A stretch of DNA of 64,000 nt from IMG/VR virus record IMGVR_UViG_3300042301_005010, positions 3,341 to 67,340 of that record. One strand, 5' to 3'. Below are positions 16,045-60,896 of the stretch, piece by piece; position 1 is the first letter of the stretch; every line of letters begins with the position of its first letter. The position numbers and the translations under genes are program-made. The notes beneath the pieces were generated by a model, which did no database searches, was not told the DNA's origin, and saw nothing but the letters and a program-made list of their open reading frames with translations. This stretch comes from a virus.

Positions 16045-18009
16045 GTGACGATCGGTTTCCTGCAAGACGCTGATTCCCGTTCTGAATGGCGGCTTGATGG
16101 CGCCCTGATCAACGTCCTCACCGGCCTGGGCACCGCAAAGGACCGAAACGAGGCGATCGGCGTCAAGGGCTCCCGGATCCTCTCTGAGTCTGCTGTCAAT
16201 GCCCTCTATGAGCAGAGCTTTCTGATCCGCCGGATCGTGGAGAAACTCCCCCAGCAGGGCACCCGCAGCGGCTGGGACCTGTCGGTGGGGGATGAAACCT
16301 CCAGCCGCATGAAGGCCCAGCTCGACGATGTCGTTGGTTGGACCGAAAAGCTCCACCTGCGCCAGGGCCTGGCCGCGGCCGCCACCTACAGCCGCCTTTA
16401 TGGCGGTGGCGCCCTGGTGGTGATCGCCGACGACCGCACGCCGATCGACAAACCTCTGAACCTCAGGCGGCTCCAGACCATCCACGGCTTCTACCCGATC
16501 GATCGTTGGCGCCTCTACCCCGCCGCCGGCTGGTCCGGCATCGGCGAGCCGGAAAACTACTGGTTCTGGACTCAGGCCGATCGGGAGCTGCAGAAGCTCA
16601 ACGATCAGGCGGGCAGCAAGGTAATGACCAGTGCTGGCCTGGGCCTCACCGAAGCCACCCAAATTGAGATCCACAGCAGCCGGGTGATCCGCATCGAGGG
16701 GCTCCCCTGCTCCTGGCGCTCCCAGCAACAGCGGCAGTGGTGGGGGCTTTCTGTGGTGGACCTGGTCTGGGATGTCTTCAAGCGGTGGGAGACCGGTCAG
16801 CAATCGGCGGCCGACATCCTCCACGACTTCGACCTGGTGGTGCACAAGCTGCCGGGCCTGGCCAACATGCTCGCCAGCGGTGGGGAGGACAAGCTCCGCC
16901 AACGGCTGCAGGCCAACGCCCTGGCCCGCAGCACCATCGGCGCCTACCTCCTGAACGACGGCGAGGAGCTCACCAACCTCAACCGCTCGGCAGCCGGCAT
17001 CGCCGACATCATCGCCAACCTCAAAAGCGAGATCACCGGCGCCTCCGGCCTGCCCCACACCCTGCTATGGGGTGAGTCCCCCTCCGGCCTGGGGGCCGAC
17101 GGTCGCAGTGAACAGGCCGCCTTTGGCAACGACGTGGCCGACTGGCAGGCCCAGCACCTCAAAGAGCCCCTGCGGCGGGTCTACGAGGTGGTGATGGCCT
17201 GCGCCGATGGCCCATGGGCAGGGAAAGCCCCCCCCGCCGACTGGGAGATCACCTTCCGGCCCACCTACACCCCCACGGAAGACGAACAGGCTGAGCTGCG
17301 GTCAAAGGTCGCGACAGCCGACGCCCAGTACATCCAAGCCGGTGTGCTGCAGCCCAACGAGGTGGCCCTGGCCCGCTTCGGGAAACCCCGCTTCAGCCTG
17401 GACACCACTCTGTTGAATCGGGAGGCCGATGGATCCATCCCCCAGCCGAAGCAGCCGGAGGCGGTGGAGTTTGGCGGCAGCCTCGAGGGCGCTCCAGCGG
17501 CGGCCCCTGATGCTGCCCCTGCAGAGGAGAATCCAGCCATCACCGGCCCCGCTATCCCCGAGGCCCCCCCCCGCGCCGATTCCGACGACGAACCCTGCTG
17601 CAGCGACTGTGAAACGCGATCGCAGGAGTTGGCAGAGAAGATCAGCAGCAACCGGGCCCGCCGCAAGCGGCGCCGGGATGAGGAGCCCCGCAACGATGCC
17701 ACCGGCCAGGTGGTGGAGATCCTGGGGGTGGCGATCCGCATGGATGGCCCCGGAATCGGCCGCCTGCTGGGCCCCTACGGGCAGACCCTGCCCTATCCCG
17801 TGGCGGTGGGTCCTGATCTGAGCGGTGTCTGGGAGGTGTTCGAGCCCAGCAGCGGCGCCTACCTGCTGGCCATGGGGCACCAGCACCAGCGGGGGATCCG
17901 TGATGCCATCGGCGCCGAGCCCACCATTCGCCGGATCAGTGCCATCGACCTGGTAGCCATGGGCGCCCTGTGTGATGCCTACCTTGCCGGAGATAGGGCA
18001 GAAGGATGA
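16045..18009 (+). CDS. Portal protein (DUF1073 type) with C-terminal extension
   Basis: N.LTGLG, LY....IRRIV, RLYGGG, IHSSRV, WGLS, SGLPHTLLWGESPSGL; lies downstream of the terminase. Confidence 0.9.
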   Translation: MTIGFLQDADSRSEWRLDGALINVLTGLGTAKDRNEAIGVKGSRILSESAVNALYEQSFLIRRIVEKLPQQGTRSGWDLSVGDETSSRMKAQLDDVVGWTEKLHLRQGLAAAATYSRLYGGGALVVIADDRTPIDKPLNLRRLQTIHGFYPIDRWRLYPAAGWSGIGEPENYWFWTQADRELQKLNDQAGSKVMTSAGLGLTEATQIEIHSSRVIRIEGLPCSWRSQQQRQWWGLSVVDLVWDVFKRWETGQQSAADILHDFDLVVHKLPGLANMLASGGEDKLRQRLQANALARSTIGAYLLNDGEELTNLNRSAAGIADIIANLKSEITGASGLPHTLLWGESPSGLGADGRSEQAAFGNDVADWQAQHLKEPLRRVYEVVMACADGPWAGKAPPADWEITFRPTYTPTEDEQAELRSKVATADAQYIQAGVLQPNEVALARFGKPRFSLDTTLLNREADGSIPQPKQPEAVEFGGSLEGAPAAAPDAAPAEENPAITGPAIPEAPPRADSDDEPCCSDCETRSQELAEKISSNRARRKRRRDEEPRNDATGQVVEILGVAIRMDGPGIGRLLGPYGQTLPYPVAVGPDLSGVWEVFEPSSGAYLLAMGHQHQRGIRDAIGAEPTIRRISAIDLVAMGALCDAYLAGDRAEG

Positions 18010-20138
18010 GCCTGGCGGTTTCGCTACAGCACCGGCTTGATGCCCTCAGGCGGAAATGCACCACCGGCTATGGGTGCGGCAGCAGTTGCATCAGCCTGCG
18101 CAAGGAATGCCGCACCAGCCCCCGCAGCGCCATCGGGAAGGAGCGGATGAAGCGGCTCCTGGAGCTCGCCGGCGGCGGGGCCTCCTCCCAGCGGGGCATT
18201 GCCCCGGTGAAGGGGAAGGAAGCCGGTGATCTTGCCGGCAGCATTGCCACCCGCCGGGGGGAAAAGGCGGGCCAACTGAAGGGCGCCCGCCAGCAGGCGG
18301 CGGCTGAGAAGGCCCAGGCAGCAGCAGAGAAGCAAGCGGTTGAGGCTGCAGCAGCCAAGGCAGCCACGCCCCCCTCCAGCACTGGCACCGGCATGGCCCC
18401 AGCCGGCACGCCCCGGGGAGAAGCCGATCGGGCAGCCAAGGAAGCGGACCCCGACTACAAATTCGCCCGGGCATCGGCCGTCGGCAACGCAGGAGAGGAC
18501 ATCGGCGACTCCGCCCGCCACAAGCGCAACGCATTCCGCACCATCGAAGAAGCCGAGGCCAGCGGCCAAGTGGAGAAGGTTCTCACCAGGGACAACCTGA
18601 TGAAAAACTTTCCCACCGACCTGATCAGCGGTGCCAGCGAAAGCAACATCCTGTCCCGCCTGGAGGCTCATTTCAGTCTCAAGGCCTTCCCCAGCCTCTC
18701 ACCCAAGGACGTGGACTCCTACGTCAAAACGCAGGAGCGCTTTCAAGACGGCGAAAGAACATATGCCGGCCGTCAAATACAAGAAGTTGATGCAAAGACC
18801 GTTCGCAAGCAATACTTCGATGCTTTCCAGTCCCTCCGCAAGGTCGTCGACGATGGCAAAGACTCAGAGCCAGGCGAGCTGAGGAAACAAGTACAAAGGA
18901 AACTATCAGACCTGATCTCAGAGATTCGAGGACAGGAAGGCACCGGATATTTCCGCACCTACAGAGACCCTTACAACCCAACCGCCAATGTACTAATCTC
19001 CATGCAAAGGCGCATGTATCAAAAAGGCACTACAAGTGTCCTTGGGCAGATGAATGCGTTTGCTGTTGCCCTGAAGAAAGAAGGGCAGATGGTCGAAGCC
19101 AGGCCAACCATGGAGCGAGCCCTGGATGCTGGCACCAAGATCATGGAGGGCTCCAGCATGGCCGCGGCCTTTGGCCAGCAAGGCAACGGCAAGTGGCGCT
19201 TCAACCCTGCCGACCACTACGTCGGTTATGCACGGCGCGAGGGTGGCCGCAATGTGGGAGGCACCCCTGACGCGGCAACCGACACGATCGTGAAAGGCCT
19301 CGGGTTCCGGGGTCTCCAGTACGGCAACTCAGTCACAGACGACGAGCGAAAGCACCACGTACAGAAGGCGGCTGAGGCCCTGGTGGACCTGGCAGATGCC
19401 ACAGGCCTGCCTGACAGCGCCATCGGTTTGAACGGAACCCTTGGCCTGGCCGTCGGCGCCAGGGGCCGCGGCGGCGCCGTTGCGCACTATGAACCAACCA
19501 TGAAGGTCATTAACCTCACCCGCAAAAAAGGCGTCGGCAGCCTGTCCCACGAATGGGGCCACGCCCTGGACAACTACGCCGCCGGCGGGGGAAGCTTTTT
19601 GTCGCAAAACAGTGGTGCGCCAGAAAAGCGTGCCGCAATGAACGAGGTGAAGAGCGCCTGGACGACAAGCGGCTTCACGCGACAGGTGTATGACTCAATT
19701 CGCGAGGTCAAAAAGGCCGGGGGCCAGCTCAGTGACGATTATTGGCTGAGTGATGTGGAAATGTTTGCCCGGTCGTTCGAGGCCCACGTCTCACTGAAGC
19801 TGGAGAAGGCTGGCAGATCCAACACCTATCTCACCAGAGAGTTTGATGACTCTGGGATGAAGAAGGGCAATGCAGCAGAGCGGCGCCTGGGTGATGGCCT
19901 GTGGCCCACCAGGAAACAGGCCGAGGCGATGGAGCCCATGTTTGATGCCCTGCTGGCCCAGATCAAGAAGGATGACTTTCCAGGAGCCAGCAACCGCCGG
20001 GACAGCCGTGAGCAGCGGATCCAGCGGCTGCTCCAGGAGGCCTACCAGGCCGCTGCCGCCGATCAGCGAGCTCATGCGAGGACGCTCCAGCAAAGGAGCG
20101 ACGCCCTGCGGGCAAGCTGCACCCCCTTGAATGGCTGA
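18006..20138 (+). CDS. Polyvalent-type protein: Cys module plus LPD1 zincin-like domain; probable internal head protein
   Basis: FRGLQYGN, LGLAVGARG.G...AHYEP...INLT, SLSHEWGHALD (HExxH), YW....EMFARSFE. Confidence 0.8.
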   Translation: MSLAVSLQHRLDALRRKCTTGYGCGSSCISLRKECRTSPRSAIGKERMKRLLELAGGGASSQRGIAPVKGKEAGDLAGSIATRRGEKAGQLKGARQQAAAEKAQAAAEKQAVEAAAAKAATPPSSTGTGMAPAGTPRGEADRAAKEADPDYKFARASAVGNAGEDIGDSARHKRNAFRTIEEAEASGQVEKVLTRDNLMKNFPTDLISGASESNILSRLEAHFSLKAFPSLSPKDVDSYVKTQERFQDGERTYAGRQIQEVDAKTVRKQYFDAFQSLRKVVDDGKDSEPGELRKQVQRKLSDLISEIRGQEGTGYFRTYRDPYNPTANVLISMQRRMYQKGTTSVLGQMNAFAVALKKEGQMVEARPTMERALDAGTKIMEGSSMAAAFGQQGNGKWRFNPADHYVGYARREGGRNVGGTPDAATDTIVKGLGFRGLQYGNSVTDDERKHHVQKAAEALVDLADATGLPDSAIGLNGTLGLAVGARGRGGAVAHYEPTMKVINLTRKKGVGSLSHEWGHALDNYAAGGGSFLSQNSGAPEKRAAMNEVKSAWTTSGFTRQVYDSIREVKKAGGQLSDDYWLSDVEMFARSFEAHVSLKLEKAGRSNTYLTREFDDSGMKKGNAAERRLGDGLWPTRKQAEAMEPMFDALLAQIKKDDFPGASNRRDSREQRIQRLLQEAYQAAAADQRAHARTLQQRSDALRASCTPLNG

Positions 20139-21519
20139 CCGCTCAATCGAGCTGATCGAGCAGCTCGACCAGGAGCTGCGGGGCCTGGAGGACCAGCAGC
20201 TGCGCAAGCTCCGGGGGATCTTCGATGAGGCCCTGCGCCGCACCATCCGCAGCCTGATGGACCGCCTGGAGCGGATCGAGGCGCAGCCCGACTACGACCC
20301 GGCCACCACCCCCGGCGCATTCCTGGGCTCCACCCCGGATGGCCAGGTGCCGATCACCCCGTTGCAGAAGAACCAGGCCAGCCTCTACCTGCAGGGCCAG
20401 CTGGCCCAGGACTTGCAGGTGATCATCAACCGCTTCCCGGCCGATCGGGCAGCCAATGCAGCACTGAACCGCGAGCTGGCGGAGCTCTACAACAAGGCCC
20501 AGGACCTGGGGACCGAGTACGCCCTCGAGCTGTCGCGGGACATGCTCCCGCCGGCCGCCGTGCTCAGCAGCCGCCACCCGTCGCTGCAGGATCCCCAGCT
20601 GCCACCGGCGGCACCACCCCCCCCCACCGACGCCCCGGCCCCGGGCAGCCCCTACCAGGAGGGGCAGAGCTTCACCAGGCTCCTGAACCTGGGGGCCGTC
20701 ATCGCCGCCTCTGAGCGGGACTTCAGGACCCTCAGCGCCAACTACCGCCGCCAGCGCAACGCCGCCACCTCCGATCGGGTCTGGGCCTCGAAGGACTACT
20801 TCTTCCGCTGGTGGAGGGACTGGGGTGATGCCGTGCAGTTCGAGACCGCCACCCAGATGGCCACGGGCGTCGACAGCCGCGCCCTGGCCCGCAACCTCAA
20901 GGCTCGCCTCCCCCACATCAACGACGCCTTCAGGAACCGGGCCGAGACCGTGGCCCGCACCGAGACCCACATTGCCGCCGGCGAGGCCAGGGAGCGGACG
21001 TTCCGCCGCGTCGGCGCCGGCTTCGTGCGGTTCGTGGCCACCGCTGACGATCGGGTCTGCGAGTTCTGCGCCCCCCGGATGGGATGCCTCTACTACGCCG
21101 GCAGCGTGAAGACCCCGATCCACCCCCGCTGCAGATGCGCCCTCTCCCCGATCACCCTGGAGTCGTTGGTGATCCAGAACCAGCTGGCGGCCAACCGTGG
21201 CGAGCGCTGGGAGGATCAGCAGCAGGCCCTGGCCGCGGCGACCCGCGAGAAGTTCGAGCAGGCCAACGGCATCAGGCCGTACCGGCCGATCGGCGGCACC
21301 GGCGAGCCCCGAGGGCCTCGGGACTACCCCCTGATGGAGCGCACCGCCCTGCCGGCCACCACCCCCAGGCTCAACACCGAGAACAATCCCGCCAACGGTG
21401 GCGCCCGGCCCTGGCCATCAGGGGATCCGGTCTGGACCCCCTCCAGGGGCTGGATCAATGCCGCCGCTCGCGAGGCCTACGAGGCCATGGTCATCGAGGT
21501 GGCTGAGCTGGAGGTGTGA
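20131..21519 (+). CDS. Minor head protein (Mu gpF/SPP1 gp7 family)
   Basis: RAETVARTE, ATADDRVCEFC, HPRCRC. Confidence 0.9.
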   Translation: MADRSIELIEQLDQELRGLEDQQLRKLRGIFDEALRRTIRSLMDRLERIEAQPDYDPATTPGAFLGSTPDGQVPITPLQKNQASLYLQGQLAQDLQVIINRFPADRAANAALNRELAELYNKAQDLGTEYALELSRDMLPPAAVLSSRHPSLQDPQLPPAAPPPPTDAPAPGSPYQEGQSFTRLLNLGAVIAASERDFRTLSANYRRQRNAATSDRVWASKDYFFRWWRDWGDAVQFETATQMATGVDSRALARNLKARLPHINDAFRNRAETVARTETHIAAGEARERTFRRVGAGFVRFVATADDRVCEFCAPRMGCLYYAGSVKTPIHPRCRCALSPITLESLVIQNQLAANRGERWEDQQQALAAATREKFEQANGIRPYRPIGGTGEPRGPRDYPLMERTALPATTPRLNTENNPANGGARPWPSGDPVWTPSRGWINAAAREAYEAMVIEVAELEV

Positions 21520-21779
21520 TCAGTCCTGATCTCAGGCATCGGGTCGAGGCCGTAGAGCTGGCGGAAGGTAAAGACAAGTCCGTCCGTTGCCTCACGATGA
21601 CTCCACAGCCAGCTTGCAACCGCGGCCGGCAGGTAGTCGGCTGACACGCTGACGCCGGGGAAATCCTTGTGGACCAACCACGCTGAGCCGAGGCCAGTGA
21701 CGTGCTGCCTAAATCCGCGGGCGATCCATTCCCCGCCCGTTGGCGGTTCATTGATCGGTTGGGCTGCATCAGTGACCAT
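21477..21779 (-). CDS. Hypothetical accessory protein
   Basis: ATG preceded by the repeated leader element. Confidence 0.55.
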   Translation of the reverse strand: MVTDAAQPINEPPTGGEWIARGFRQHVTGLGSAWLVHKDFPGVSVSADYLPAAVASWLWSHREATDGLVFTFRQLYGLDPMPEIRTDHTSSSATSMTMAS

Positions 21780-21815
21780 GGGGAGCGTGCAATGGGGGGG
21801 GAAGGGGGCCGGATG
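21777..21815 (-). repeat. Repeated gene-leader element (also 22165-22222 and, on +, 42648-42702)
   Basis: CATCCGGC-C-rich-ATTGCACGCTCCCC-ATG. Confidence 0.8.
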
Positions 21816-21816
21816 T

Positions 21817-22167
21817 TCAGCGATGCGGCGGTTTCTTTATCTCTTTCAGAGATGAGTCGAAGATGTAAGGGCTGTCGATCTTCCCAGCCTCGACGGCGGC
21901 GGCAGCGTATGCCCGGCCAAACTCAGCAAAAGCGTATTCGGCCTGCTTCATTGTCGCCAGGACCTGGTTCATCTGCTTGCCAACCGACCGAACAACTTCG
22001 GCGTAGCGCCGGATGCGTGCAGAGAACAGCTCCTCAGGCTTCGCAGGCCAGAGCTTGTCCCACTGCATCTGGCCCCAGATGGTGCCGCATCTTAAGGGGG
22101 CAGTGTTGACCCAGTGGATGCGACCGATCCGGCCTCCGGTGCTGGTGAAGGAAATGAAGGTGTCCAT
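21817..22167 (-). CDS. Hypothetical accessory protein
   Basis: ATG preceded by the repeated leader element; lower GC. Confidence 0.55.
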   Translation of the reverse strand: MDTFISFTSTGGRIGRIHWVNTAPLRCGTIWGQMQWDKLWPAKPEELFSARIRRYAEVVRSVGKQMNQVLATMKQAEYAFAEFGRAYAAAAVEAGKIDSPYIFDSSLKEIKKPPHR

Positions 22168-22222
22168 GGGGAGCGTGCAATCGGGAAGGGGTGCCGGATG
22201 GGCCCCGGCGGGCCGTGGATGA

Positions 22223-22750
22223 TCAGGCCTCGAGGGCCTTGCGGACCTGGTAGCGGGTGAGCCCCAGTGTGCCTGCAATCTCGCGCTGGCTGAGCCCCTG
22301 AGAGGCGAGGTGCCAGATCGACAGCGGGGCGACGTTGGCTGCCGTGCGGGCCGGCGGCGGGGCTGGGGCCAGCCGCTGAACGACCATCAAGTCGCACCCG
22401 GGCCGGCGCTGAACGATCGTCTGTACCGTTGCCGAGCCTTCTAGGCCTGCGAAGTCGATTCCGACGACCATGGCGGGAGCTGCCGAGGAATCCTCGGTAG
22501 CTGAACCTGTAAGCCCGGCTTTCAAGTTGCCCCCTGGCAGCCCCAGACGTGCCAGGCCGTGAAGCTGGTGCTTCTGGGCCCAGGCCACCAGCTGGTGCCA
22601 GCTCTCGCCGGCCATGAAACCCAGCGTGTAGATCAGGGCCACCACCGCACCGATGCGGCGGGCAGCGGCATGGAGCGTGGGGCCCCAGTCGGAGGAGAGC
22701 CCCCGGGTGATGGTCTTCAGATCGGGAACGGTGATGCAGATCGTGGTCAT
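22223..22750 (-). CDS. Protein with a hydrophobic segment and C-terminal HTH
   Basis: IGAVVALIYTLGFMAG; LASQGLSQREIAGTLGLTRYQVRKAL. Confidence 0.65.
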   Translation of the reverse strand: MTTICITVPDLKTITRGLSSDWGPTLHAAARRIGAVVALIYTLGFMAGESWHQLVAWAQKHQLHGLARLGLPGGNLKAGLTGSATEDSSAAPAMVVGIDFAGLEGSATVQTIVQRRPGCDLMVVQRLAPAPPPARTAANVAPLSIWHLASQGLSQREIAGTLGLTRYQVRKALEA

Positions 22751-22879
22751 CGGTCTTTCCTATGGCGATTCCGGCGGCTGCTCAGAGCCTGCGCGGGGTG
22801 GGTTGTAAGGCGGTTTCAGCAGGGCCACTCAGGGCTCTTCTGCTGACCCAAAAACCGTACCACGTTTTGCTGTGCGATG

Positions 22880-23120
22880 GGCACGGCTCAGGACAGGCAC
22901 GGATTATGCACCAGCCCCCAGACCCCTTGCTATCACTGGCTTGGCACTACGACATCCGCGAGATTGACGAGGATTTGTATCTTGCAGTTCTGGCCTATCG
23001 TCGCAGTCAAAACGCAGCCACTGACAGCGATCTGAGCGGCACGGCAGCACGGCCTTAAGGGACAGGAAGGGACAGCAAGGGACTGGAAAGACGTACGTTA
23101 TGCACGGCCCGTGCATAACT
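22880..23120. promoter_or_regulatory. Putative attP region
   Basis: Gap 5' of the integrase. Three phased 10-bp repeats AAGGGAC(A/T)G(G/C) at 23057-23086. Inverted repeat GTTATGCAC/GTGCATAAC at 23097-23119, with another TTATGCAC at 22904. Confidence 0.6.
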
Positions 23121-23158
23121 GCCAGGTCTGCTCCCCGGACGTTTCGTATTCGCCGCCC

Positions 23159-24163
23159 ATGGCATCGATCACCGCCCAAAAGGGCCGGCTCTACCTGCTG
23201 GCCAACCTGCCGCGACGCGATGGGGCTCCAGGGCTGCGGCAGTCCCGCATCGCCCTGAAGCTGGACGACACGCCGATCAACCGGCGCGCCGCCTTGAAGC
23301 AAAAGCAGACCCTGGAGCGGCAACTGGAGGAGGGCTCCTTCGCCTGGGCCTACTGGCTGGACGAGGCATCAGGGACGATCACGTGGCGCGAGGCCATTGC
23401 CAGGCTCTACCGGGCTCGGGTGGTGCTCGGCCGCACGGGGCAAAGCACGTGGGAGATCAACTATCTGGGGAGGCTGCGGCAGATCCCGCCGACCAGCGCC
23501 TGCACGACCGCCAGCATGGCCAAGGCTCTGGAGCGCTACGACCGCAGCACGTGCAGCTACAAGGAGCTGTTCTACCTTCTGCGGCATCTGGCCAGGTTGG
23601 TGGCGGTGCCGTTCCCGGAGGTGCCGTTGCCCACCTACAACCAGGCCCAGTTGGTGGCGGTGCCCACCGACGAGCAGATCATTGCGTGGGTGGAGGGGGC
23701 GCCCGATCCGGTGCGCTGGTACTGGGGAATGATGGCCACCTACGGCCTGCGGCCCCATGAGATCGAGGGGGCGGTGCTGATCAATCGCGATCTCTGCCAG
23801 GTGGCCGAGGGCACAAAGACGGGTTTCAGAACGGTTGTGCCGCTGCCCCGTGAGTGGGTCGGGCTGTTCGGGTTGCGGGATCGGCGGTTGCGGCCTCGCC
23901 TGGAGGGGAGCACCGATCGTCCGGATGCGGTCAGCAAGTGGTTGCACAAGGAGCTTCGGCGCCAAAGGCTGCCGTGGCGGCCTTACTCACTGCGCCATGC
24001 GTACGGCGGGAGGCTATGGCGAGAGGGCGGCAGCAGGCTTGACATCTACACCGCTGCTCGCCTGATGGGTCACACCCCAGGCCAGCACTCCCGGACCTAC
24101 CGCGCTCACATTCAGCCGCATCAGGTGGCAGAGGCGGCGGAAAGGGCGTTAGGGGGAGGCTGA
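23159..24163 (+). CDS. int: Tyrosine integrase
   Basis: MATYGLRPHE (R), KTG (K), YSLRHAY (xxLRH), LMGH and TY (catalytic Y). Confidence 0.92.
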   Translation: MASITAQKGRLYLLANLPRRDGAPGLRQSRIALKLDDTPINRRAALKQKQTLERQLEEGSFAWAYWLDEASGTITWREAIARLYRARVVLGRTGQSTWEINYLGRLRQIPPTSACTTASMAKALERYDRSTCSYKELFYLLRHLARLVAVPFPEVPLPTYNQAQLVAVPTDEQIIAWVEGAPDPVRWYWGMMATYGLRPHEIEGAVLINRDLCQVAEGTKTGFRTVVPLPREWVGLFGLRDRRLRPRLEGSTDRPDAVSKWLHKELRRQRLPWRPYSLRHAYGGRLWREGGSRLDIYTAARLMGHTPGQHSRTYRAHIQPHQVAEAAERALGGG

Positions 24164-25796: not shown

Positions 25797-25897
25797 GCTG
25801 CGGCCACAATGGCAAGGCCCTGCATTGGCATTGCCAACCAGGGTCATGCCTACCGTAAGAGCGATCCACAGTCGCCATCCATCCACCGTCGCCATCC

Positions 25898-26191
25898 ATG
25901 AGCCGTAACGAATGCGCCTACGCCGCCCAGCACTTCCTGGCCTTCCTGAAGCAGGTCGGCCCGATCGAAGCGGCATGGGCCATGAACACGGCTCTCAAAA
26001 CGCTCGTGGATCTGCCTCCAGGCAATGACCACGTGGCCGCGGCGGAGAAGGCCCTTGAAGAGGCGCTGACTGAGTTTGATGAGCTGGCCCAGGATGCCAG
26101 CAGCGAGCCAGCAGACGGTGGTGGAGAAGCGCTGCTGGCTGAAGGACTCACACCAGAGCCCACCGCCAAGAAATCCGGCAAGGCCAGCTGA
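25898..26191 (+). CDS. Hypothetical protein
   Basis: Pyrimidine-rich leader; typical codon usage. Confidence 0.55.
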   Translation: MSRNECAYAAQHFLAFLKQVGPIEAAWAMNTALKTLVDLPPGNDHVAAAEKALEEALTEFDELAQDASSEPADGGGEALLAEGLTPEPTAKKSGKAS

Positions 26192-26228
26192 TTGTGAGGC
26201 CTAGCCTGACGCCAGCTGCCCGCCAGCC

Positions 26229-26582
26229 GTGACACAGCCGCAAATCCTCACGCTCAGTGCGGTCTATGAAGGCACGACGTGGGAAGGAATTAACTCGGTA
26301 ACGCTGGAGCAGCCGGTCGGGACCCCGCTGAACCTGACCAATGCGCAGCTGCGCATGGTCTACCGGCGAGTCGGTGAGAACCTGGAGAGGTTGAATCTTG
26401 TTGTTGGCGCTGGGATTCAGCTCACCAATGCGGTCGGTGGCGTCTTTCGAGTTCTCCCGCAAATCCTGCCATTGACGGCAGGAAGTTATTACTGGGAGAT
26501 CATCCTTACGCAAGCCAGCGGAACGATCATCCCGCTTTTTGCTGGCACACAGGAGATCACCAGGCTTGGGAGGGCGTCGTAA
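26229..26582 (+). CDS. Virion structural adaptor (BppU-N/Ig-like)
   Basis: G.TW, PLNLT...RM, G.YYWEI.LT...G pattern seen ahead of fibre genes. Confidence 0.55.
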   Translation: MTQPQILTLSAVYEGTTWEGINSVTLEQPVGTPLNLTNAQLRMVYRRVGENLERLNLVVGAGIQLTNAVGGVFRVLPQILPLTAGSYYWEIILTQASGTIIPLFAGTQEITRLGRAS

Positions 26583-26584
26583 CA

Positions 26585-27958
26585 GTGGATATTTCGGCAG
26601 TTGTTGTACTGGACGAAACCACCCTCCAGGCCACGGTGAACCCACCGCCTGGGGGAGGAAATGGCGAAGGTGGCGCATCTCTGAGCGATGCCACACCCCA
26701 GGCCCTGGGCCCTGCAGCCGCTGGCACCGCTTTGACAGGCAGCCGCAGCGACCACCGCCACGCCATGCCCACGGCTGCCGAAGTTGGCGCGGACGTCAGC
26801 GGGACAGCAGCGGCGGCAGTGGCGGCCCACGCCGCCGCGGCGGACCCCCACCCCAGCTACACCACCGGAGCAGAGGCAGCGGCAGCGGCCCCGGTGCAGT
26901 CGGTGTCGTTGTCAGCGCCCAGCGGCTGGAGCACCAGCTCCACCAACACGGGCGGCGGCGTCACCCTGACACTGGGCCTCCCCACGGGATTCAGCCTGCC
27001 CTCCAACACCAGCCAGGCCAACTGGAACACTGCCTTCAGCGAGCGGCTCCGCTGGGACGGCAGCAATACGGGGCTGAATGCCGCCACGGGGCGGACATCG
27101 CTCGGGCTTGGCTCAGCCTCGCAGCGCGATGCAGGCACAGCCGCCGGGAACGTCCCGGTGCTGGATGGAGCAGGCTTGGTGCCCTCGGCACTGTTGCCAG
27201 GGTTTGTTGATGATGTTCTTGAGTTTGCGAACATCGCCGCGTTTCCTGCAACGGGCGATGCCGGGAAGCTCTACATCAGCCAGGCGACCAACCGCCAGTA
27301 TCGGTGGTCTGGGTCGGTCTATACCGAGATCAACCCGTCGCCGGGCTCTACCGATGCGATCCCACAGGGATCGGTCAATCTATATTTCACAACCGCACTC
27401 GGCCAAAGCGCTGCGTTTTCCTGGTGGTCTGGCTACCGCTCAACGATTGGCGACCAACTGGCCACCGCTGCCAATGCTGCAGCAGCCCGCACAGCCATCG
27501 GCGCAGGCACCAGCAGCCTGGTCGTCAGCAGCAGTGCCCCCCAGCCCCTGGCGGCCATCGCATCGGCAGGTAGCACAGGGCAGGCGGCAGACGCAGGGCA
27601 CGTCCACCAGCGGGACACCGATGTGCTAGTGGTCAATTTAAGCGGCAGCGCCTCCGATCCAACCGCAGCAAACACGATCGAGACGTTTAGATTTACGTTC
27701 GCTGCTGAAATCCTGGCATCAGAGCTAAGCTCTGAAACCGTGGCGTCAGGATCAGCATTTCAGGTTAATGCTCGCCTAAACGCAAGCTCAATCTATAGCG
27801 TGCGACCTCAAATAGCGATTGGAAGCACAGCTGGCAGCTCGGGGACTTTGGCAATTACAGCGGCGGCGATTGGTGACGTTTTGCGATTTGATATATCTCA
27901 GGCTGGGGGCGGGTGCCGCCTAGCAAAACTATATTTAACTATAAGGAGGACCGCGTAA
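26585..27958 (+). CDS. Fibre-like structural protein
   Basis: Ala/Ser/Thr-rich; ADPHP.Y, ART.LG, VDDVLEFAN.AAFPATG..GKLY, YRWSGS.Y fibre motifs. Confidence 0.7.
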   Translation: MDISAVVVLDETTLQATVNPPPGGGNGEGGASLSDATPQALGPAAAGTALTGSRSDHRHAMPTAAEVGADVSGTAAAAVAAHAAAADPHPSYTTGAEAAAAAPVQSVSLSAPSGWSTSSTNTGGGVTLTLGLPTGFSLPSNTSQANWNTAFSERLRWDGSNTGLNAATGRTSLGLGSASQRDAGTAAGNVPVLDGAGLVPSALLPGFVDDVLEFANIAAFPATGDAGKLYISQATNRQYRWSGSVYTEINPSPGSTDAIPQGSVNLYFTTALGQSAAFSWWSGYRSTIGDQLATAANAAAARTAIGAGTSSLVVSSSAPQPLAAIASAGSTGQAADAGHVHQRDTDVLVVNLSGSASDPTAANTIETFRFTFAAEILASELSSETVASGSAFQVNARLNASSIYSVRPQIAIGSTAGSSGTLAITAAAIGDVLRFDISQAGGGCRLAKLYLTIRRTA

Positions 27959-28629
27959 TGTCTAACAACTTTGTCCTACTTGATACCACCACAGGCTTGA
28001 TCCGCGACTACCCCCGCCGGGATGATGAGCCTGTCGAGGGCCTTGATCCTCGTTACGAGGTGCTGCGGATCGTGCGCGAGCCAGCGCCTGAATACGACCC
28101 CGCAACGCACAGCCTCGGCGAAACCCGCACCATCGACCTCGAGGCCGGGGAATGGCGCTGGGGCTGGCTGGCTGCACCGCTGCCGCCGGTGGCCCCGCAG
28201 CCGGATTGGCGCATCTTCAAACGCACGCTCCTGGCCCACCCTGCGATCAATCTGCTGTTGGGTGGCAGCTTGGCAACGGCCCCGGCGGCTGGCCTGAGCC
28301 TGCCCGCCACTCTGTTGGCCGCTGCGGGCGGTGGCGATGTAGACGACTTCCGGGGCGCATGGGTGGCGCTGCGGCGCCAAGGGCTGGTGACCCCCGAGCT
28401 GCTCCAGGAGGTGCGAGGCCTGGCTCTGACGCTGCACCTCCCCGAGGCGTTCCTGGCCGCCCTCGGCGGGGCTGCCCGTCCGTCCGCGACGGCGCTGGGG
28501 CAAGAGTGGGTTGATGCCGCCGGGGATCTGTGGGTCGTCGTGCAGGCCCGCGGCGAGGATGGTCAGTTTCTGGCCGACGACCTCACCACGCCCGAGCGTG
28601 AATCGCTGGCATGGGAGAGGCAGGCATGA
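27958..28629 (+). CDS. Fibre-associated protein
   Basis: TAATG coupling; P.YDPATH.L motif. Confidence 0.55.
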   Translation: MSNNFVLLDTTTGLIRDYPRRDDEPVEGLDPRYEVLRIVREPAPEYDPATHSLGETRTIDLEAGEWRWGWLAAPLPPVAPQPDWRIFKRTLLAHPAINLLLGGSLATAPAAGLSLPATLLAAAGGGDVDDFRGAWVALRRQGLVTPELLQEVRGLALTLHLPEAFLAALGGAARPSATALGQEWVDAAGDLWVVVQARGEDGQFLADDLTTPERESLAWERQA

Positions 28630-29501
28630 GCGTTATTTGGATTAATTCCGGGAGATTTTCGGCGGCGCCAACTCTATGGACCCTCGCAGACACAGCCACT
28701 GAGCTACTGCTGCTGCCGGACGAAGAGGGGACGATTACAGCTACATCGGGAGCGGTAAGTCAGATACGGGACTTCAAGAACAACGGCCGGGTATTTAACG
28801 GAGCTGCTGGAAGTCGGCCCACTATCACGGCAAATGCGTTAAATGGTAAGGCTTGCCTTACCTTTAACGGATCGCAATGGCTTACCTTTGCAGGCTTGGC
28901 ATCAGTATTCAATATGCTACATACAGCCGCCGGAGCTGGTTCAACGGTCGTTGCCGTGTGGAGAGCTGGAACCAACAGCAACCCTAACGCTTTTTACGGC
29001 TTGTTAGGGAACAGTGCCTTTGGAACACCAAACCATGGCTTTGCCATGGGTTTTGACGACAGGCTGAGCACTATCAGAAACGACTCGGTGCTTGCCCAGA
29101 TTGTTCGCGGCGTCTCTGGCCAGCCTACAGCGCAAAACGCATTAGCGGATAATACGCACCCAGCAAATACACCTACAATAATTGTCCATACGTCTAACCC
29201 CGCTGCATCCCTTCCAGCCGATAGGTCCATACTCAGGATCAATGGCACAGAGTTCAAAAAGAATATAGCCATAGGTGCCGCATCTACGGCAAACGCTACG
29301 CATCCGCTGCAAGTCGGTGCAGCCGGCGGCAATGTATTCCCGCTTGTCGGCGATGTATTCATGCTTGGCATTTTGCCGCCTGGCACCACCCAAGACACCA
29401 TCCTGCGGGCGGAAGGCTACGCAGCCGGCCCGGTGGCCGGGTGGAACCTGCAGAGCAACCTTGCCGCAGGGCACCCCTGGAAGTCCGCCGCCCCAACGTG
29501 A
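28626..29501 (+). CDS. Beta-sandwich (LamG/ConA-like) virion protein
   Basis: VSQ.RD...NG, RPT.....NG...L.F.G, L.AGHPWKSAAP; lower GC. Confidence 0.6.
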   Translation: MSVIWINSGRFSAAPTLWTLADTATELLLLPDEEGTITATSGAVSQIRDFKNNGRVFNGAAGSRPTITANALNGKACLTFNGSQWLTFAGLASVFNMLHTAAGAGSTVVAVWRAGTNSNPNAFYGLLGNSAFGTPNHGFAMGFDDRLSTIRNDSVLAQIVRGVSGQPTAQNALADNTHPANTPTIIVHTSNPAASLPADRSILRINGTEFKKNIAIGAASTANATHPLQVGAAGGNVFPLVGDVFMLGILPPGTTQDTILRAEGYAAGPVAGWNLQSNLAAGHPWKSAAPT

Positions 29502-29580
29502 CCCCGGCGGCCAATCCTCCCTATCACCATGCCCATACTTGACTCAGAACGCTGCAGGCCCTGTGGATCGACGAACTGAA

Positions 29581-29823
29581 ATGGTGCAGCTGGCCACTGA
29601 GCTGCTGAGTGAACAGATCCGCCCGGTGCGGATCGTGTCGATCTCCGATGCCGGTGGTGAGCCCCAAGGCGAGTTCGTATCGAACCAGACGCGATTCACC
29701 TTCAAGTTCACCAAGGGCGGAATGGTGACCTACAAGCCCAAGGGCCAGGGCGGCGGCGGCCGGGAGGACAGCGATCTCCAGGCCCGGATTGAGCGCATTA
29801 AAACCCGTCTCGGAGCATCGTGA
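29581..29823 (+). CDS. Small protein paralogous to the N-domain of 30254, ending in REDSDLQARIERIK
   Basis: Pattern similarity by eye; start may be GTG 29563. Confidence 0.6.
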   Translation: MVQLATELLSEQIRPVRIVSISDAGGEPQGEFVSNQTRFTFKFTKGGMVTYKPKGQGGGGREDSDLQARIERIKTRLGAS

Positions 29824-30257
29824 TGAACTGGCTCGATGGACTGCTGGAGCCCCTGCTGGATCGCCTCGCCCTGAAGCTGGCGCTCAAGGTCCGCGCCCAG
29901 CTGGATGGTGCGATCGATGCCGCGCTAGATCGGGCGGAAGACCGGATCGACACGGCCTTTGAGGGGCTGGAGGAGCGGCTGCAGGCAGCTGCCACAAAGC
30001 CCATCGCGGAGCTGAAAGCGGCGCTGGCGCCGGTCATCACCTTGCAGCAGCAGCTCCAGGGTGATGTCTGGTCGAATGCTGCAGAGATCCAGCAGCAGGC
30101 GATTGAGGAGGCGGCCAAAGCTGCCGGGATGATCCCAGCCAAAGAAATGGAGGGCCAGATCGGCTTCGCAGTGGCCTCGGCGCGTGCTGCCGCGGTGGAT
30201 CACCTGCGCAGCCGCTTGACGCCGCCCCGGCCGTGGAAGGAGATCCCTGATCGATGA
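29820..30257 (+). CDS. Helical hypothetical protein
   Basis: Overlaps on both sides. Confidence 0.65.
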   Translation: MMNWLDGLLEPLLDRLALKLALKVRAQLDGAIDAALDRAEDRIDTAFEGLEERLQAAATKPIAELKAALAPVITLQQQLQGDVWSNAAEIQQQAIEEAAKAAGMIPAKEMEGQIGFAVASARAAAVDHLRSRLTPPRPWKEIPDR

Positions 30258-33200
30258 GTCGCCACCAGTCCCTGCTGGATCGCCTCTCGGCCATCGAGGC
30301 CCAGCTCGTCTCGACGAACCGGCAGGCCCTGCCCCGGCGGCCCATGGCCCTGCGGCATGACGCTGGCGATCGGGTCTCCCCGGTGCTGCAGCAGCTACTG
30401 GCCGAGGTGCTTCCCGGCGCCCTGGTGCTCGACTGGCGGCAGGAGGGTGCTGCCCATGCCGGGCGGATGGCCGCCGATGGCCTGGTCTTTCAATTCCGTG
30501 TCGATGCCGAAGGCGTCGGCTATCGCCCCGCTTGGGAGGGGGTGCTGCAGCGTGGCTGGGAGCTGCGATCGGATTCGTTCCTGCAGCTGCGGGCCCCCGG
30601 CTCCCGGATGGACTTCCGCCGCACCCGGGCCGGCAGTGGCCAGAAGCGGAAATGCGCCACCGGCTACGGCTGCGGCAACGCCTGCATCTCCCTCCAGAAG
30701 GAGTGCCGGATCGCCCCCCGTTCAGCGCTCGGCAAGGGCCGCCTGCGGCGCCTCCAACAGCTGGCTGCCGCCGGCGACCAGTCGGCCGGGGCCACCGCCA
30801 GCCAGGTGCAGGCCTCCCGCGGGGCGGCCGCAGCGGCCCTGCAGAAGGACCGCACCACCCAACGGGTGCAGAAGCTGCTCGAGCGGCCGGAGATTGCCGA
30901 GTTCCTGCGCACCGGCAAGCTCCCCGCCACGGCCAACAGCTCCACCGAGCCCGGGACCGTCCGGGAGATGAAGCCAGGGGAGATCGGCTTCGATCCCTCC
31001 CGGTTCCAGTACAAGCTCAACGCCACCGCCACCACCGGCGAGGTGGGCAGCCTGTCGGGGGTGCGCAAGTGGGACGCCAACCTTTCCGGCGTGATGGCTG
31101 TCTGGAAGGACCCAGGCGACGGCAAGGTCTACGTGATCAATGGCCATAACAGGCTGGCCCTGGCCAACCGCCTGGGGGCGGAGGCCGTCACGGTGCGGTT
31201 CCTCAATGCCGCCACCGCCACCGAGGCCCGGGCGATCGGGGCCCTGCAGAACATCGCCGAAGGGGCAGGCTCCCCCATGGATGCGGCCAAATTTTTCCGC
31301 GACACCGGCATCAAAAACCAGCAGGACGTGGAGGCCCGGGGCCTGCCCCTGGGCAGCGGCCAGGCCGCGAAGGGGCTGAGCCTCAGCAAGCTCCCCGGCG
31401 ACGTGTTCAACGCCGTGGTGCGCGGGGACCTGACGGAGAACCGCGGGGCGATCATCGGCGGTAGTGGCCTCGATGACACGAAGCAGCGGGAGGTGTTCAA
31501 GATGATCGGCTCCCGCAAGGCCATCACCGATCAGACCCTGCAGGAGCTGGTGGAGCATGCCGCTGCCAGCGTGCAACGCACCCAGACCACGATGAGCCTG
31601 TTCGGCGAGACCGAGGAGGCGAAAGACAACTTGATCACCCGGGCCAAGCTCTCCGCCTCCCTGAAGGCCAAGATCAGCCGCGAGAAGAGGTTGTTCGCCA
31701 CCGTCAGCAAGGCCAAGGCCGCCACCAGCCTGACCGAGAAGGGGGGGAACGTGATCAATCAGGAGCAGAGCGCCAAGGTGGCCGGCGAGGCCAGCGAGGC
31801 CCTGGGGGTGTTCGAGCGGCTGAAGAGCAGCGCCGGCCCGATCAGCTCTGCCCTCAACCGTGCCGCCGATCGGGTGGAGGCCGGCGAGGCCGAGGCCACG
31901 GTGCGGAAGGAGCTGGAGCGCGATGTCTTCGCCGCTGTCGAGCAGGAGCTGGTGTCGGTAGGGCTGCGCAAGCGGCCCCGGGCCGACAGCCTGCAGGAAC
32001 GGATCGATGCCCTCAAACGGAAATGCAGCACCGGTTACGGCTGCGGGTCGGCCTGCATCAGCCTCCGGAAGGAATGTCGCACCACTCCCCGCAGCGCCAT
32101 CGGGAAGGAGCGCATGAAGCGGCTGCTGGCCCTGGCCCAGGGCGAAATCAAGCCCAAGGGGATAGGTGTGCCTAAAGCAGCCGAAGCGGCCACCATGGCG
32201 GCTGATCTGCAGGGTCGGCGCACCGGCCAGGCTCAGGAGCTGCGATTCCAGCGCCAGGCTGCTCGTCGAGCCAAGGCTGGTCAAGAGAAACAAACCAATC
32301 CCTACCGGCCAACTCCGCAAATTAAGGAGGGCGTCACCTTAAAGCCAATGAGCATCGCTGCAGGAGGCGATACAAACTACGATCCAGCAGTAGAGAAGAG
32401 AAAAGCAGCGGGTGGCCTGAAGTATTACCGCACCCAGCGTGGAGGAGCCACCAAGCAAAACTACTTTTTCCGGGATCGCCAGGCAGCAGAGCACTGGTAC
32501 GCAGACCACAACGCTAAAAGTGACGCGGATGCCGAGGAGGGCACCCATAATCGCCGTGGCAACGAGTGGCAGGCCGAGTACAAGGCCTCCTATGTGGGCA
32601 ATCGAAACCTTCTGCGAGACACCAGCGACCGCGAAGTGCTGGAGACAGTTGAGGCCTTTGCAGCTGCCGGCACAGCAACAAGAGGGGGGACCGCAACAGA
32701 TGTGCGCATCGGTGGCAACAAGCATTCCAGGCCGATTCGAGAGGGCACGTTTGCAAATGGGAACGCATCAGAAGGCTCACCCCAGCCGGTGCTGACCAAC
32801 CCCGGCCGCCAGGATCCCGGCCTAGCCCCCAACGCCAAGCAGCCAGGCCTCAACGCCCAGGACGTGACCACCAGCAAGCAGCAGGCCGCCTTCGCCCGGC
32901 AGCAGCAGCAGGCAGCCCAGGCCGCCGGGGATCAATCCGGGGCTCAGGCCTGGCAGAAGGAGGAGCGGACGGTGGAGCGCAACCGGCTGGCCACCGCCAT
33001 CTCCAGCAGCAAGCAGAGCCAGAGCTCGCTGTTTGGGGTCACCGAATACGACGAGACCATGCCGCTGTTCAAGGGACAACCCGCCAGCACCCCCAGCACC
33101 GGCGGAAGCCTGGCCGTCCAGTCCGGCGGTGGAGCAGCCGCCCGGCCCACGGCGGCCGGCCCTGCCTCCAAACCCGGCAGCGTCTCACAAGCCCTCAAGC

Positions 33201-33688
33201 AGACCCTGGGGGCCCTCAGGGCCGCCGACGCCCGGCAGATGGGCATGATTGCTGAGCAGCTCTTCGAGGCCGGCTGGACGATCGACCGCCGCACCCGCTA
33301 CCGGGGCATGAGCAAGGATCAGGCCCGGGAGAAGTTCAAAATCGAGTTTGCCCAGAAGATGCAGGCCCAGGCCAGCTCCCCTGAAGCTGCCGCCCGATCC
33401 GCGGCAATGCGCAACCGTGCCGGCGCCTCCGGAACGGTCTCTGGTGCCCTGAAGAGCGTGCTCGAGGACATGAAGGCCCAGGACAAGCGGCTGAACGATC
33501 TCCAGAAGCAGACGATCGACCTGCGCATCCAGGCAGAGGAGCAGTTTGGTGGTGAGGAGGGCGAAGATCAATCGCTGGGTGGTGGCCGGCCGCGGCGGCG
33601 CCTCGGCGGCGGCCGCCGCCGGGATGCCGACATCCTCGAAGCCCGGATTGACGCCCTGCGGGTCCAATGCGCCACCATGAGCCGATGA
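30254..33688 (+). CDS. Large polyvalent-type protein: two Cys modules plus a ParB/Srx-like domain; probable internal head protein
   Basis: RFQYK, VYVINGHNRLALA, ALQNIAEG; two KC.TGYGCG.ACISL.KECR modules. Confidence 0.78.
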   Translation: MSRHQSLLDRLSAIEAQLVSTNRQALPRRPMALRHDAGDRVSPVLQQLLAEVLPGALVLDWRQEGAAHAGRMAADGLVFQFRVDAEGVGYRPAWEGVLQRGWELRSDSFLQLRAPGSRMDFRRTRAGSGQKRKCATGYGCGNACISLQKECRIAPRSALGKGRLRRLQQLAAAGDQSAGATASQVQASRGAAAAALQKDRTTQRVQKLLERPEIAEFLRTGKLPATANSSTEPGTVREMKPGEIGFDPSRFQYKLNATATTGEVGSLSGVRKWDANLSGVMAVWKDPGDGKVYVINGHNRLALANRLGAEAVTVRFLNAATATEARAIGALQNIAEGAGSPMDAAKFFRDTGIKNQQDVEARGLPLGSGQAAKGLSLSKLPGDVFNAVVRGDLTENRGAIIGGSGLDDTKQREVFKMIGSRKAITDQTLQELVEHAAASVQRTQTTMSLFGETEEAKDNLITRAKLSASLKAKISREKRLFATVSKAKAATSLTEKGGNVINQEQSAKVAGEASEALGVFERLKSSAGPISSALNRAADRVEAGEAEATVRKELERDVFAAVEQELVSVGLRKRPRADSLQERIDALKRKCSTGYGCGSACISLRKECRTTPRSAIGKERMKRLLALAQGEIKPKGIGVPKAAEAATMAADLQGRRTGQAQELRFQRQAARRAKAGQEKQTNPYRPTPQIKEGVTLKPMSIAAGGDTNYDPAVEKRKAAGGLKYYRTQRGGATKQNYFFRDRQAAEHWYADHNAKSDADAEEGTHNRRGNEWQAEYKASYVGNRNLLRDTSDREVLETVEAFAAAGTATRGGTATDVRIGGNKHSRPIREGTFANGNASEGSPQPVLTNPGRQDPGLAPNAKQPGLNAQDVTTSKQQAAFARQQQQAAQAAGDQSGAQAWQKEERTVERNRLATAISSSKQSQSSLFGVTEYDETMPLFKGQPASTPSTGGSLAVQSGGGAAARPTAAGPASKPGSVSQALKQTLGALRAADARQMGMIAEQLFEAGWTIDRRTRYRGMSKDQAREKFKIEFAQKMQAQASSPEAAARSAAMRNRAGASGTVSGALKSVLEDMKAQDKRLNDLQKQTIDLRIQAEEQFGGEEGEDQSLGGGRPRRRLGGGRRRDADILEARIDALRVQCATMSR

Positions 33689-60894: not shown

Positions 60895-60896
60895 TC

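Follow-up and report, generated by a model that had tools for sequence, protein, structure and literature searches.

A leader, four-cysteine, and basic-helix module ahead of exchangeable effector domains in a phage head-gene cluster: a candidate tag for capsid loading

To our knowledge, the selection by a phage of the proteins to be loaded into its capsid and injected has been worked out in detail in very few cases, chiefly T4 and, less fully, P1 and P22. The internal proteins of T4 have an N-terminal capsid targeting sequence of ~10 amino acids (aa) with the motif L/I-x-E, cut by the gp21 prohead protease; otherwise unrelated proteins enter the prohead by way of this leader and leave together with the DNA, and foreign proteins can take their place. 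The cargo-loading peptides of encapsulins are also short portable tags, usually C-terminal and uncleaved, which bring enzymes into a shell of HK97 fold. DarA, DarB, and DdrB of phage P1 are head-internal, processed, and injected antirestriction proteins, and DdrB joins a ParB-like domain to a zincin (PMC5512222). For polyvalent proteins, head packaging, processing, and injection have been predicted (Iyer, Burroughs, Anand, de Souza, and Aravind, 2017; PMC5512222), and the head-packaged, processed polyvalent effector is a published concept (PMC5512222, PMC9503650). The subject here is a 64,000-nucleotide (nt) stretch of cyanophage DNA (the window: bases 3341-67340 of the 67,340-nt genome in IMG/VR record IMGVR_UViG_3300042301_005010; all coordinates are window positions), in which two proteins encoded among the head genes, of 710 aa (p710) and 1144 aa (p1144), carry three copies of a module of ~60 aa: a leader helix with the motif R-x-D, four invariant cysteines (C-x2-G-x2-CG-x2-C-x6-C), and a basic helix.

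On balance, the sequences favor a reading in which p710 and p1144 would be head-packaged polyvalent effectors, each unit tagged by this adaptor and separated from the next by the head protease at R-x-D; packaging, cleavage, and metal binding of the tagged proteins are in each case predicted properties. The gene class itself is known. Like the polyvalent proteins described in PMC5512222, these two have unrelated effector-type units on one polypeptide (a zincin-like peptidase with LPD1 in p710; a ParB/Srx-like unit and a second, unrelated unit in p1144), and they lie among portal, MuF, and capsid genes. What appears new is the adaptor ahead of every unit. In contrast to the polyvalent proteins as the main text of that paper presents them, each unit here is preceded by the leader-Cys4-basic-helix adaptor, processing is proposed at R-x-D by the head protease rather than by a zincin, and there are two fixed slots with exchange at the adaptor. 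Within the literature searched, the leader-Cys4 adaptor, and its link with a motif that is frequent in the scaffold, are previously undescribed: no description of the tag was found in open-access full text, nor in the main text of PMC5512222, where “cysteine” and “Zn-ribbon” give 0 matches.

The resemblance to T4 internal proteins lies in a short N-terminal leader on unrelated cargo and in a simple candidate cleavage motif. There is no sequence relation, however: the leader here is R-[LIM]-D-[ASF] and not L/I-x-E, the T4 proteins have neither a Cys knuckle nor a polyprotein arrangement, and the part downstream of the putative cut would here stay on the cargo. An analogy to P1 DarA/DarB, drawn in a first-pass annotation of the window from its letters alone, holds as a functional one only, since there is no sequence match to P1: p1144 matched 21 of 50,697 phage records, none of them P1, no DarA or DarB Pfam domains were found, and the Cys module has not been reported for P1. 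As with the MuF- and portal-fused effectors (PMC5512222, PMC9503650), one family member is joined to a portal of the Mu type, and for the ParB-like cargo there is a match to a portal-fusion PHROG; unlike those, the cargos here are separate open reading frames (ORFs) beside portal and MuF, with their own adaptor and no fusion to MuF. Encapsulin tags are likewise short, portable, and found on diverse enzymes, but have no Cys knuckle, cleavage, or ejection.

Phage genes run throughout the window, whose GC content is ~65%. The closest named phage is Synechococcus phage S-CBS4 (47.5% identity across the DUF2213 domain), and Cyanobium metagenome-assembled genomes are among the related contigs. On the plus strand the order is large terminase, portal, p710, MuF, an integrase block, small ORFs, p1144, DUF2213, cement, and capsid (Table 1). 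The start of p710 overlaps the portal stop, and its own stop overlaps the MuF start.

The modules belong to one 117-nt repeat family with three copies, at 18041-18157 (module A, in p710), 30637-30753 (module B, in p1144), and 32008-32124 (module C, also in p1144), with first Cys codons at 18057, 30653, and 32024. A profile built from 40 module instances gives exactly three full matches in a six-frame translation of the whole 67,340-nt genome, the number originally noticed, as well as two leader-only pieces at 20061-20123 and 33614-33676. In a protein alignment of the three modules, 31 of 60 columns are invariant. The first-pass impression that two of the copies are nearly identical in DNA was mistaken: identity across the 117 nt is 83.8% for A and C, 70.1% for A and B, and 71.8% for B and C, and the longest exact run shared by A and C is 26 nt. 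Between A and C the synonymous divergence (dS) is 0.76 and the nonsynonymous (dN) 0.106 (dN/dS ~0.14, that is, purifying selection), and these are therefore old paralogues, with their similarity kept by selection at the protein level; among the copies generally dS is 0.76-0.87 and dN 0.11-0.28.

From 40 diverse instances, hand-picked out of 121, the consensus is R-x-D-x-L-x-x-R-x-D-A-x-K-R-K-C-x-T-G-Y-x-C-G-x-x-C-I-S-x-x-K-E-C-R-x-x-P-x-S-A-x-x-K-x-R-L-x-R-L-x-A-L-A-x-G-G, with four Cys and two Gly invariant in all 40. Across its 42 aa the core has a net charge of +8 to +9 (10-11 Lys+Arg versus 1-3 Asp+Glu). An AlphaFold2 (AF2) model of the module, of low confidence (mean predicted local distance difference test score, pLDDT, 62.5), has a helix at residues 6-18, a hairpin over the cysteines at 25-32, and a second helix at 45-58. 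The four-Cys knuckle probably binds zinc.

The R-x-D site that had been reported just ahead of each copy is there in all three: RLD at -8 in A, RSD and RMD in B, and RAD and RID in C. In the wider family it is found in 69 of the 84 upstream windows (those of instances with 30 aa upstream); when random windows were drawn from these proteins, 200 sets gave a mean of 9.9 and at most 16. L, I, or M usually stands between the R and the Asp, and the Asp is followed by A (97), S (29), or F (17). Counted from the first Cys, the R is at -8 in 56 of the 137 instances and at -6 or -7 in another 24, and R-x-D is retained, at variable spacing, in very distant members. The DUF2213 protein of the window has 15 copies versus 3.1 expected (0 of 2000 shuffles reach 15), its homologue in Planktothrix phage PaV-LD 15 versus 4.1 (0 of 1000), and gp022 of S-CBS4, also DUF2213, 7 versus 1.9 (1 of 1000). 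There are 10 in p1144 versus 5.0 expected (44 of 2000 shuffles), eight of them in the N-domain or the leaders, and all three of those in p710 fall in its initial 12 or final 47 aa, which places the sites of the two polyproteins at the boundaries between units. In the capsid proteins of the window phage, PaV-LD, and S-CBS4, R-x-D is at aa 4-11. The C-terminal extension of the portal protein (17332-18006) has four within aa 510-567, together with a CCxxC motif and no Pfam match; from these sites the portal itself may be processed. The pattern supports R-x-D as a putative recognized linear motif.

The candidate for its recognition is the DUF2213 protein, which matches phrog_530, “head maturation protease,” over its whole length (E 1.5e-79). 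H71, S124, and H155 are invariant in 9-10 DUF2213 homologues, and may be comparable to the Ser-His-His triad of assemblin. Its N-terminal domain also matches PDB 9b40_G, “gp24 scaffolding protein” (E 7.1e-13), the structure of gp24 from phage Pa193; a protease-scaffold fusion would fit both the PHROG and the PDB label. In a Pfam search of the N-domain at E up to 10, no protease family was found, only DUF2213 itself. The module leader resembles the R-x-D-bearing helices in the scaffold half, and a structure prediction of the module with that half (aa 255-440), one of the checks proposed with the first-pass annotation, counts neither for nor against an interaction (complex score 0.00, mark 0.32). 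Residues 286-326 of Pa193 gp24, a helix-turn-helix in its C-terminal half, lie under the five-fold vertices, and the protein is present in virions by liquid chromatography-mass spectrometry and “possibly cleaved” (PMC11456595). The DUF2213 protein here differs from it in that the Pbunavirus relative NH-4 (the one relative compared, Pa193 itself not included) has no R-x-D enrichment, and no Cys-tagged cargo is known there.

Neither Pfam nor NCBIfam contains the module, whose sole library match is PHROG 33618, “unknown function.” Among 1.84 billion representative proteins there are 112 matches at E up to 1e-3 (72 at E up to 1e-10); by regular expression, 106 of the 112 contain 137 instances in all, 66 near the N-terminus and 71 internal. 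A Pfam scan of all 112 assigns families to a minority only, diverse and effector-like, and most cargos have none. Zincins are represented by M90 (5), LPD1 (4), and ATLF (5), and other families include DnaJ (7), protein kinase (2), ABC1 (2), LRAT (2), esterase/lipase/thioesterase families, and, once each, PARP, GNAT, ParB_N, and Portal_Mu, the last as a fusion. IMG/VR yielded 48 loci, with 55 new ones in a second scan, and GTDB genomes four; the second viral scan was aimed at a “YWAAY..RLDAR” subfamily, and its generic pattern returned only the window's own lineage. A distant family member (P0105) had no match in the viral contigs. Outside the lineage, a tblastn search of the 50,697 phage records found the module only in PaV-LD and in Aphanizomenon phage CL131; it was not detected in S-CBS4, and blastn of slot 1 (see below) against the same phage collection gave no match. 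In one stretch of PaV-LD there are six separate module-bearing ORFs, in a structural cluster between the capsid and tape-measure genes, of which two are labeled “virion structural protein” and “minor virion protein” in the GenBank annotation. In CL131 the module is in gp044, gp047, and the 1811-aa gp048, again between capsid and tape-measure genes. The Cys and R-x-D positions are kept in PaV-LD, a distant relative of different GC content. Three weak matches (P0082, P0094, and P0111; E 5e-8 to 1e-3) are short proteins with, by eye, a hydrophobic signal-peptide-like stretch ahead of the Cys motif, so that the Cys core by itself may be present in secreted proteins of bacteria, too, with no connection to phage heads.

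Across ~100 related viral contigs the module occupies two fixed slots, one from portal to MuF (slot 1, with p710 in the window) and one upstream of the DUF2213 gene (slot 2, with p1144); MuF and the DUF2213 gene are the respective downstream boundaries. For 121 instances from 51 sources (a mapping that left out loci L001 and L053-L055), both flanks are visible for 40 in the portal-MuF interval and for 31 in the interval from the small ORFs to DUF2213; one flank is visible for another 23, two of which in fact lie beyond the capsid gene on its downstream side, and no flank for 27. One or more head genes are present in 47 of the 51 sources, and in the second scan 51 of 55 loci have a head-gene homologue and four cargo homologues only; since many of the loci are overlapping parts of shared contigs and all come from one lineage, the counts show consistency, not independent replication. 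Slots hold from one to at least four modules (the latter in L015). The 81 unique cargo segments fall into 14 families, of which LPD1/zincin and at least three others occupy both slots; cargo is demonstrably swappable between them. In relatives whose portal and MuF are 87-96% identical to those of the window, the LPD1 cargo is 44-92% identical or absent, and the slot-1 cassette of L014 has no match to the zincin/LPD1 cargo. DNA homology of slot 2 with at least 12 relatives stops at 32136/32137, the 3′ edge of module C, and resumes 650-1600 nt downstream, with cargo C replaced or deleted. In slot 1 the break comes 350-550 nt past the module, so that breaks are not always at the module edge. Some relatives have a further module gene outside both slots (L018, at 16080; L109-L111), downstream of the capsid or near the terminase.

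A short helix recurring at termini had at first been taken for a separate element framing the cargo. It was scored with a position-specific scoring matrix (PSSM) of the 12 residues ahead of the Cys, built from 52 leaders of other proteins. Shuffled proteins give best scores with a 95th percentile of 12.5, against 32.9 and 30.0 for the leaders of modules C and A, 29.2 for the C-terminus of p1144, and 14.9 for that of p710. Of the helices originally listed, SLQHRLDALR and SLQERIDALK are thus the leaders of modules A and C, and LEARIDALR, at the end of p1144, has a significant score; LQARIERIK, the C-terminal helix of the 82-aa ORF, was rejected as a module leader (2.6). A fifth helix, LQQRSDALR at the C-terminus of p710, had not been listed. 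After each of the two significant terminal helices comes one Cys and then the stop codon; these helices are truncated modules at cassette junctions rather than a framing element of their own. In the close relatives L020 and L013 the stub positions continue into a complete module and further cargo, at the p1144 end in L020. An ending R-x-D-A-L-R-A-x-C-x-x-L-N-G-stop, which overlaps the MuF start by 8 nt, stands behind at least four different cargos in relatives, and a leader stub ends 15 of 51 unique complete module-bearing ORF tails.

The cargo segments are mutually unrelated, as first described (best pairwise BLASTP E 0.41). Cargo A, in p710, does combine LPD1 (Pfam, E 2.3e-13, 50.4 bits versus a cut-off of 27, aa 574-655) with an HExxH motif, HEWGH at aa 515; aa 409-611 of p710 match phrog_616, phrog_29900, and phrog_18947, and a partial match to NCBIfam CLCA_X (E 1.8e-26) is below the cut-off of that family. 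For cargo B the evidence is consistent with the ParB-like domain proposed earlier, but weakly so: it matches the C-terminal region of phrog_21 (E 1.3e-49), a PHROG labeled “portal protein,” has a weak match to Noc ParB (7ng0; E 0.002) and an NGHNR motif at aa 296, and gives no Pfam ParB match at E up to 10. Cargo B also shares 34% identity with a portion of a 2563-aa ORF in Prochlorococcus podophage P-SCSP1g, an ORF that by our own reading of synteny is at the position of a T7 gp16-type internal core protein. Cargo C has no Pfam match at E up to 10; the lower-GC block that had been placed at about 32280-32780 is real, with 55-61% GC at 32200-32800 versus 64-74% on either side. Ahead of cargo B, the N-domain of p1144 (30254-30601) and the 82-aa ORF (29575-29823) share, by eye, an F-x-F...G-x-x-Y-[KR]-P pattern, and the ParB-type module is preceded, in distant proteins as well, by an N-domain whose last part reads W-E-x-R-S-[DE]-x-F-L...R-x-D-F. 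The 82-aa and 145-aa ORFs have no match in Pfam, PHROG, or NCBIfam.

In the mechanism we envisage, the polyproteins would be expressed late, along with the head genes, as series of unrelated effector domains, each unit opening with the ~60-aa adaptor: a leader with one or two R-[L/I/M]-D-[A/S/F] sites, a Cys4 knuckle, and a basic amphipathic helix. Leader and adaptor would carry the polyprotein into the procapsid as it assembles. The DUF2213 head maturation protease would then cut after the Asp of R-x-D, dismantling the scaffold and splitting the polyprotein into single cargos, each with a basic Cys4 knuckle at its N-terminus; the knuckle would tether the cargo to packaged DNA, the cargo would exit with the DNA at infection, and once delivered (zincin/LPD1, ParB-like, and others) it would act early against the host. 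Since the adaptor is conserved at every unit boundary, it could also serve as a homology patch for cassette exchange, insertion, and deletion, and the leader-Cys stubs at the ends of both ORFs may be scars of such events. A more specific proposal, offered tentatively and with the balance somewhat against it, is that the leader-Cys4-basic-helix unit is a portable loading and release cassette, in which the leader by itself would dock any protein on the DUF2213 scaffold, the protease free it at R-x-D, and the knuckle clamp it to the genome for ejection with the DNA, and whose coding sequence would double as a recombination site between the two slots; HK97-fold phage capsids would in that case have a natural plug-and-play system for cargo. 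The first-pass annotation had already suggested capsid-loaded polyprotein effectors, and the multi-unit ORFs among head genes, the shared tag, the 14 swapped cargo families, and the breakpoints at the module edge go some way toward that reading.

Several observations weigh against the proposed mechanism. The protease role of the DUF2213 protein derives from a PHROG label and three invariant residues; an AF2 model of its N-domain, from a 10-sequence alignment, had a pLDDT of 41.4 and was unusable for a fold search; and Pa193 gp24, the only solved relative, is called a putative scaffolding protein, in a description that speaks of no protease (PMC11456595). Module B lacks a canonical leader, and the low-confidence module model had no PDB fold match by Foldseek (best E 3.6) and no usable match in the ESM Atlas. 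The protein p710 as a whole is not enriched in R-x-D (3 versus 3.6 expected), nor are the DUF2213 proteins of Pseudomonas phage NH-4 (1 versus 1.7) and a Rhizobium phage (1 versus 2.1), while that of E. coli phage e4/1c (L057, 3492-4601) is enriched in K-x-D (11 versus 3.0; 0 of 1000 shuffles); with S-CBS4, these are four examined out of 1674 DUF2213-matching phage records, which include T1-like and Klebsiella phages. R-x-D is thus lineage-specific at best, and a basic-x-Asp motif may be a wider property of the DUF2213 family. Being partly in predicted helix, R-x-D could be structural rather than a cleavage site. Nearly all the context loci come from a single phage lineage, many of them overlapping and not independent; the PaV-LD virion labels are those of the GenBank annotation, taken as they stand; and ORF048 is unnamed in the main text of the CL131 virion study.

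Some of the same facts suit other explanations. The module might be a nucleic-acid-binding zinc knuckle that serves the effectors after delivery, with packaging specified by the N-domain, the linker, or contacts with MuF or portal; we think this unlikely, although the four invariant Cys, the predicted hairpin, and the net charge of +8 to +9 all fit, module B works without a canonical leader, and R-x-D lies upstream of the Cys, so that after a cut the module would remain on the cargo. Esterase/lipase, LRAT, DnaJ, and kinase cargos with no obvious nucleic-acid role are tagged as well, and this reading would account neither for the conservation of the R-x-D leader nor for a placement strictly within head or structural clusters. 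The DnaJ domains could instead point to late cytoplasmic or assembly factors (chaperone-like, scaffold-associated), with the Cys module serving oligomerization or disulfide cross-linking. The proteins of this phage are known from genes alone, the virion of cyanophage Pam3 holds disulfide links (PMC9942802), and a few distant matches have, by eye, hydrophobic signal-like N-termini ahead of the motif. This account seems less probable still, in view of a cargo repertoire that is that of conflict effectors and is hypervariable (44-92%) beside portal and MuF at 87-96% identity, of the two PaV-LD members annotated as virion proteins, and of ParB-like cargo inside both a podophage ORF at the internal-core position and a portal-fusion PHROG.

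Iyer et al. propose that polyvalent proteins are cut by a metallopeptidase (PMC5512222), a point against a head protease, and with HEWGH and LPD1 in slot 1 the phage's own LPD1-associated zincin might process the polyproteins, R-x-D being its site or no site at all. We give this even less weight: R-x-D is most enriched in the DUF2213 scaffold and is found at capsid N-termini, both typical head-protease substrates, it is enriched in S-CBS4, where the module was not detected, and the slot-1 cassette of L014 has no zincin/LPD1 match. That the repeats are recombination linkers or scars only, conserved as DNA with no protein function, is scarcely credible; homology does break at the module edge and leader stubs do end ORFs, but synonymous sites are near saturation (dS 0.76-0.87) while the protein is conserved (dN 0.11-0.28), the longest exact shared run is 26 nt, and the Cys and R-x-D positions persist as far as PaV-LD with its different GC content.

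In this system a recognizable tag stands ahead of at least 14 unrelated cargo families in ~100 related viral contigs, together with a candidate cleavage motif also enriched in the scaffold. Should the tag be sufficient for loading, it would provide a handle for finding injected cyanophage effectors, likely anti-defense enzymes of unknown family among them, would explain the shuffling of effectors between phages, and could be used to load phage capsids with foreign proteins. Cleavage at R-x-D, or at K-x-D in the T1-like e4/1c, would be a further prediction for the widespread DUF2213 head protein.

Table 1. Features of the head-gene cluster and the neighboring lysogeny-type block (window positions; i-E, independent E-value of the profile match).
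Feature	Position	Strand	Evidence or remark
Large terminase	10785-12341	+	
Portal protein with 225-aa C-terminal extension	16045-18009	+	Pfam Phage_portal_3 E 1e-62, aa 50-427
710-aa polyvalent protein (p710, slot 1): module A, Ala/Gly-rich linker, zincin-like LPD1 cargo	18006-20138	+	
Module A: leader SLQHRLDAL, Cys4 core, basic helix	18006-18185	+	Profile match 18012-18206, i-E 1.6e-29
HEWGH zincin motif (aa 515-519) and LPD1 domain (aa 574-655) of cargo A	19548-19970	+	
Orphan leader and first Cys (LQQRSDALRASC), C-terminus of p710	20076-20120	+	PSSM 14.9; partial profile match 20061-20123
MuF-like head morphogenesis protein, separate 462-aa ORF	20131-21519	+	Pfam Phage_Mu_F E 1.6e-08; 14 PHROG head families
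Helix-turn-helix (HTH) ORF	22223-22750	-	
Integrase-like ORF	23111-24163		Lysogeny-type block
HTH_17 excisionase-like ORF	24149-24385	-	
ASCH gene	24551-24946	-	
Four ORFs with no known family	26229-29501		After ASCH gene
Two small ORFs (82 aa, 145 aa), overlapping stop/start codons, ahead of slot 2	29575-30257	+	Conserved in relatives
1144-aa polyvalent protein (p1144, slot 2): N-domain, module B, ParB-like cargo, module C, cargo C, orphan leader	30254-33688	+	
Module B, no canonical leader helix; RSD and RMD upstream	30602-30781	+	Profile match i-E 1.1e-22
ParB/Srx-like cargo B (aa 224-542; NGHNR at aa 296)	30923-31879	+	phrog_21 E 1.3e-49; Noc 7ng0 E 0.002
Module C: RADSLQERIDAL leader, Cys4 core, basic helix	31973-32152	+	Profile match i-E 1.4e-30
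Cargo C, no family; contains lower-GC stretch 32200-32800	32153-33625	+	
Orphan leader and first Cys (ADILEARIDALRVQC), C-terminus of p1144	33626-33670	+	PSSM 29.2; partial profile match 33614-33676, i-E 0.31
DUF2213 protein: putative head maturation protease (N-terminal half) and scaffold (C-terminal half)	34141-35463	+	Pfam DUF2213 E 8.8e-41
Cement protein	35510-36073	+	Pfam Phage_cement E 6.9e-17
Major capsid protein, RLD at aa 4-6	36129-37061	+	Major_capside E 1.4e-41

Within the head cluster, from MuF to the second cargo slot, is a lysogeny-type block (21500-29500). Its interpretation as a nested element splitting the head module was rejected, as it is in the same place in relatives L005, L010, and L041. 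Two other genes are on the opposite strand: a 75-aa XRE/Cro-type HTH gene (33838-34065, minus; HTH_31 E 1.2e-11) between p1144 and DUF2213, an odd site for a regulator, and a sigma-70-like gene (15021-16007, minus; Sigma70_r2 E 3.2e-14) directly upstream of the portal. Farther downstream, at 59000-61000, GC falls to 49-50% inside a 1596-aa ORF (56104-60894; no Pfam match), a segment that may be a recently acquired one for host recognition.

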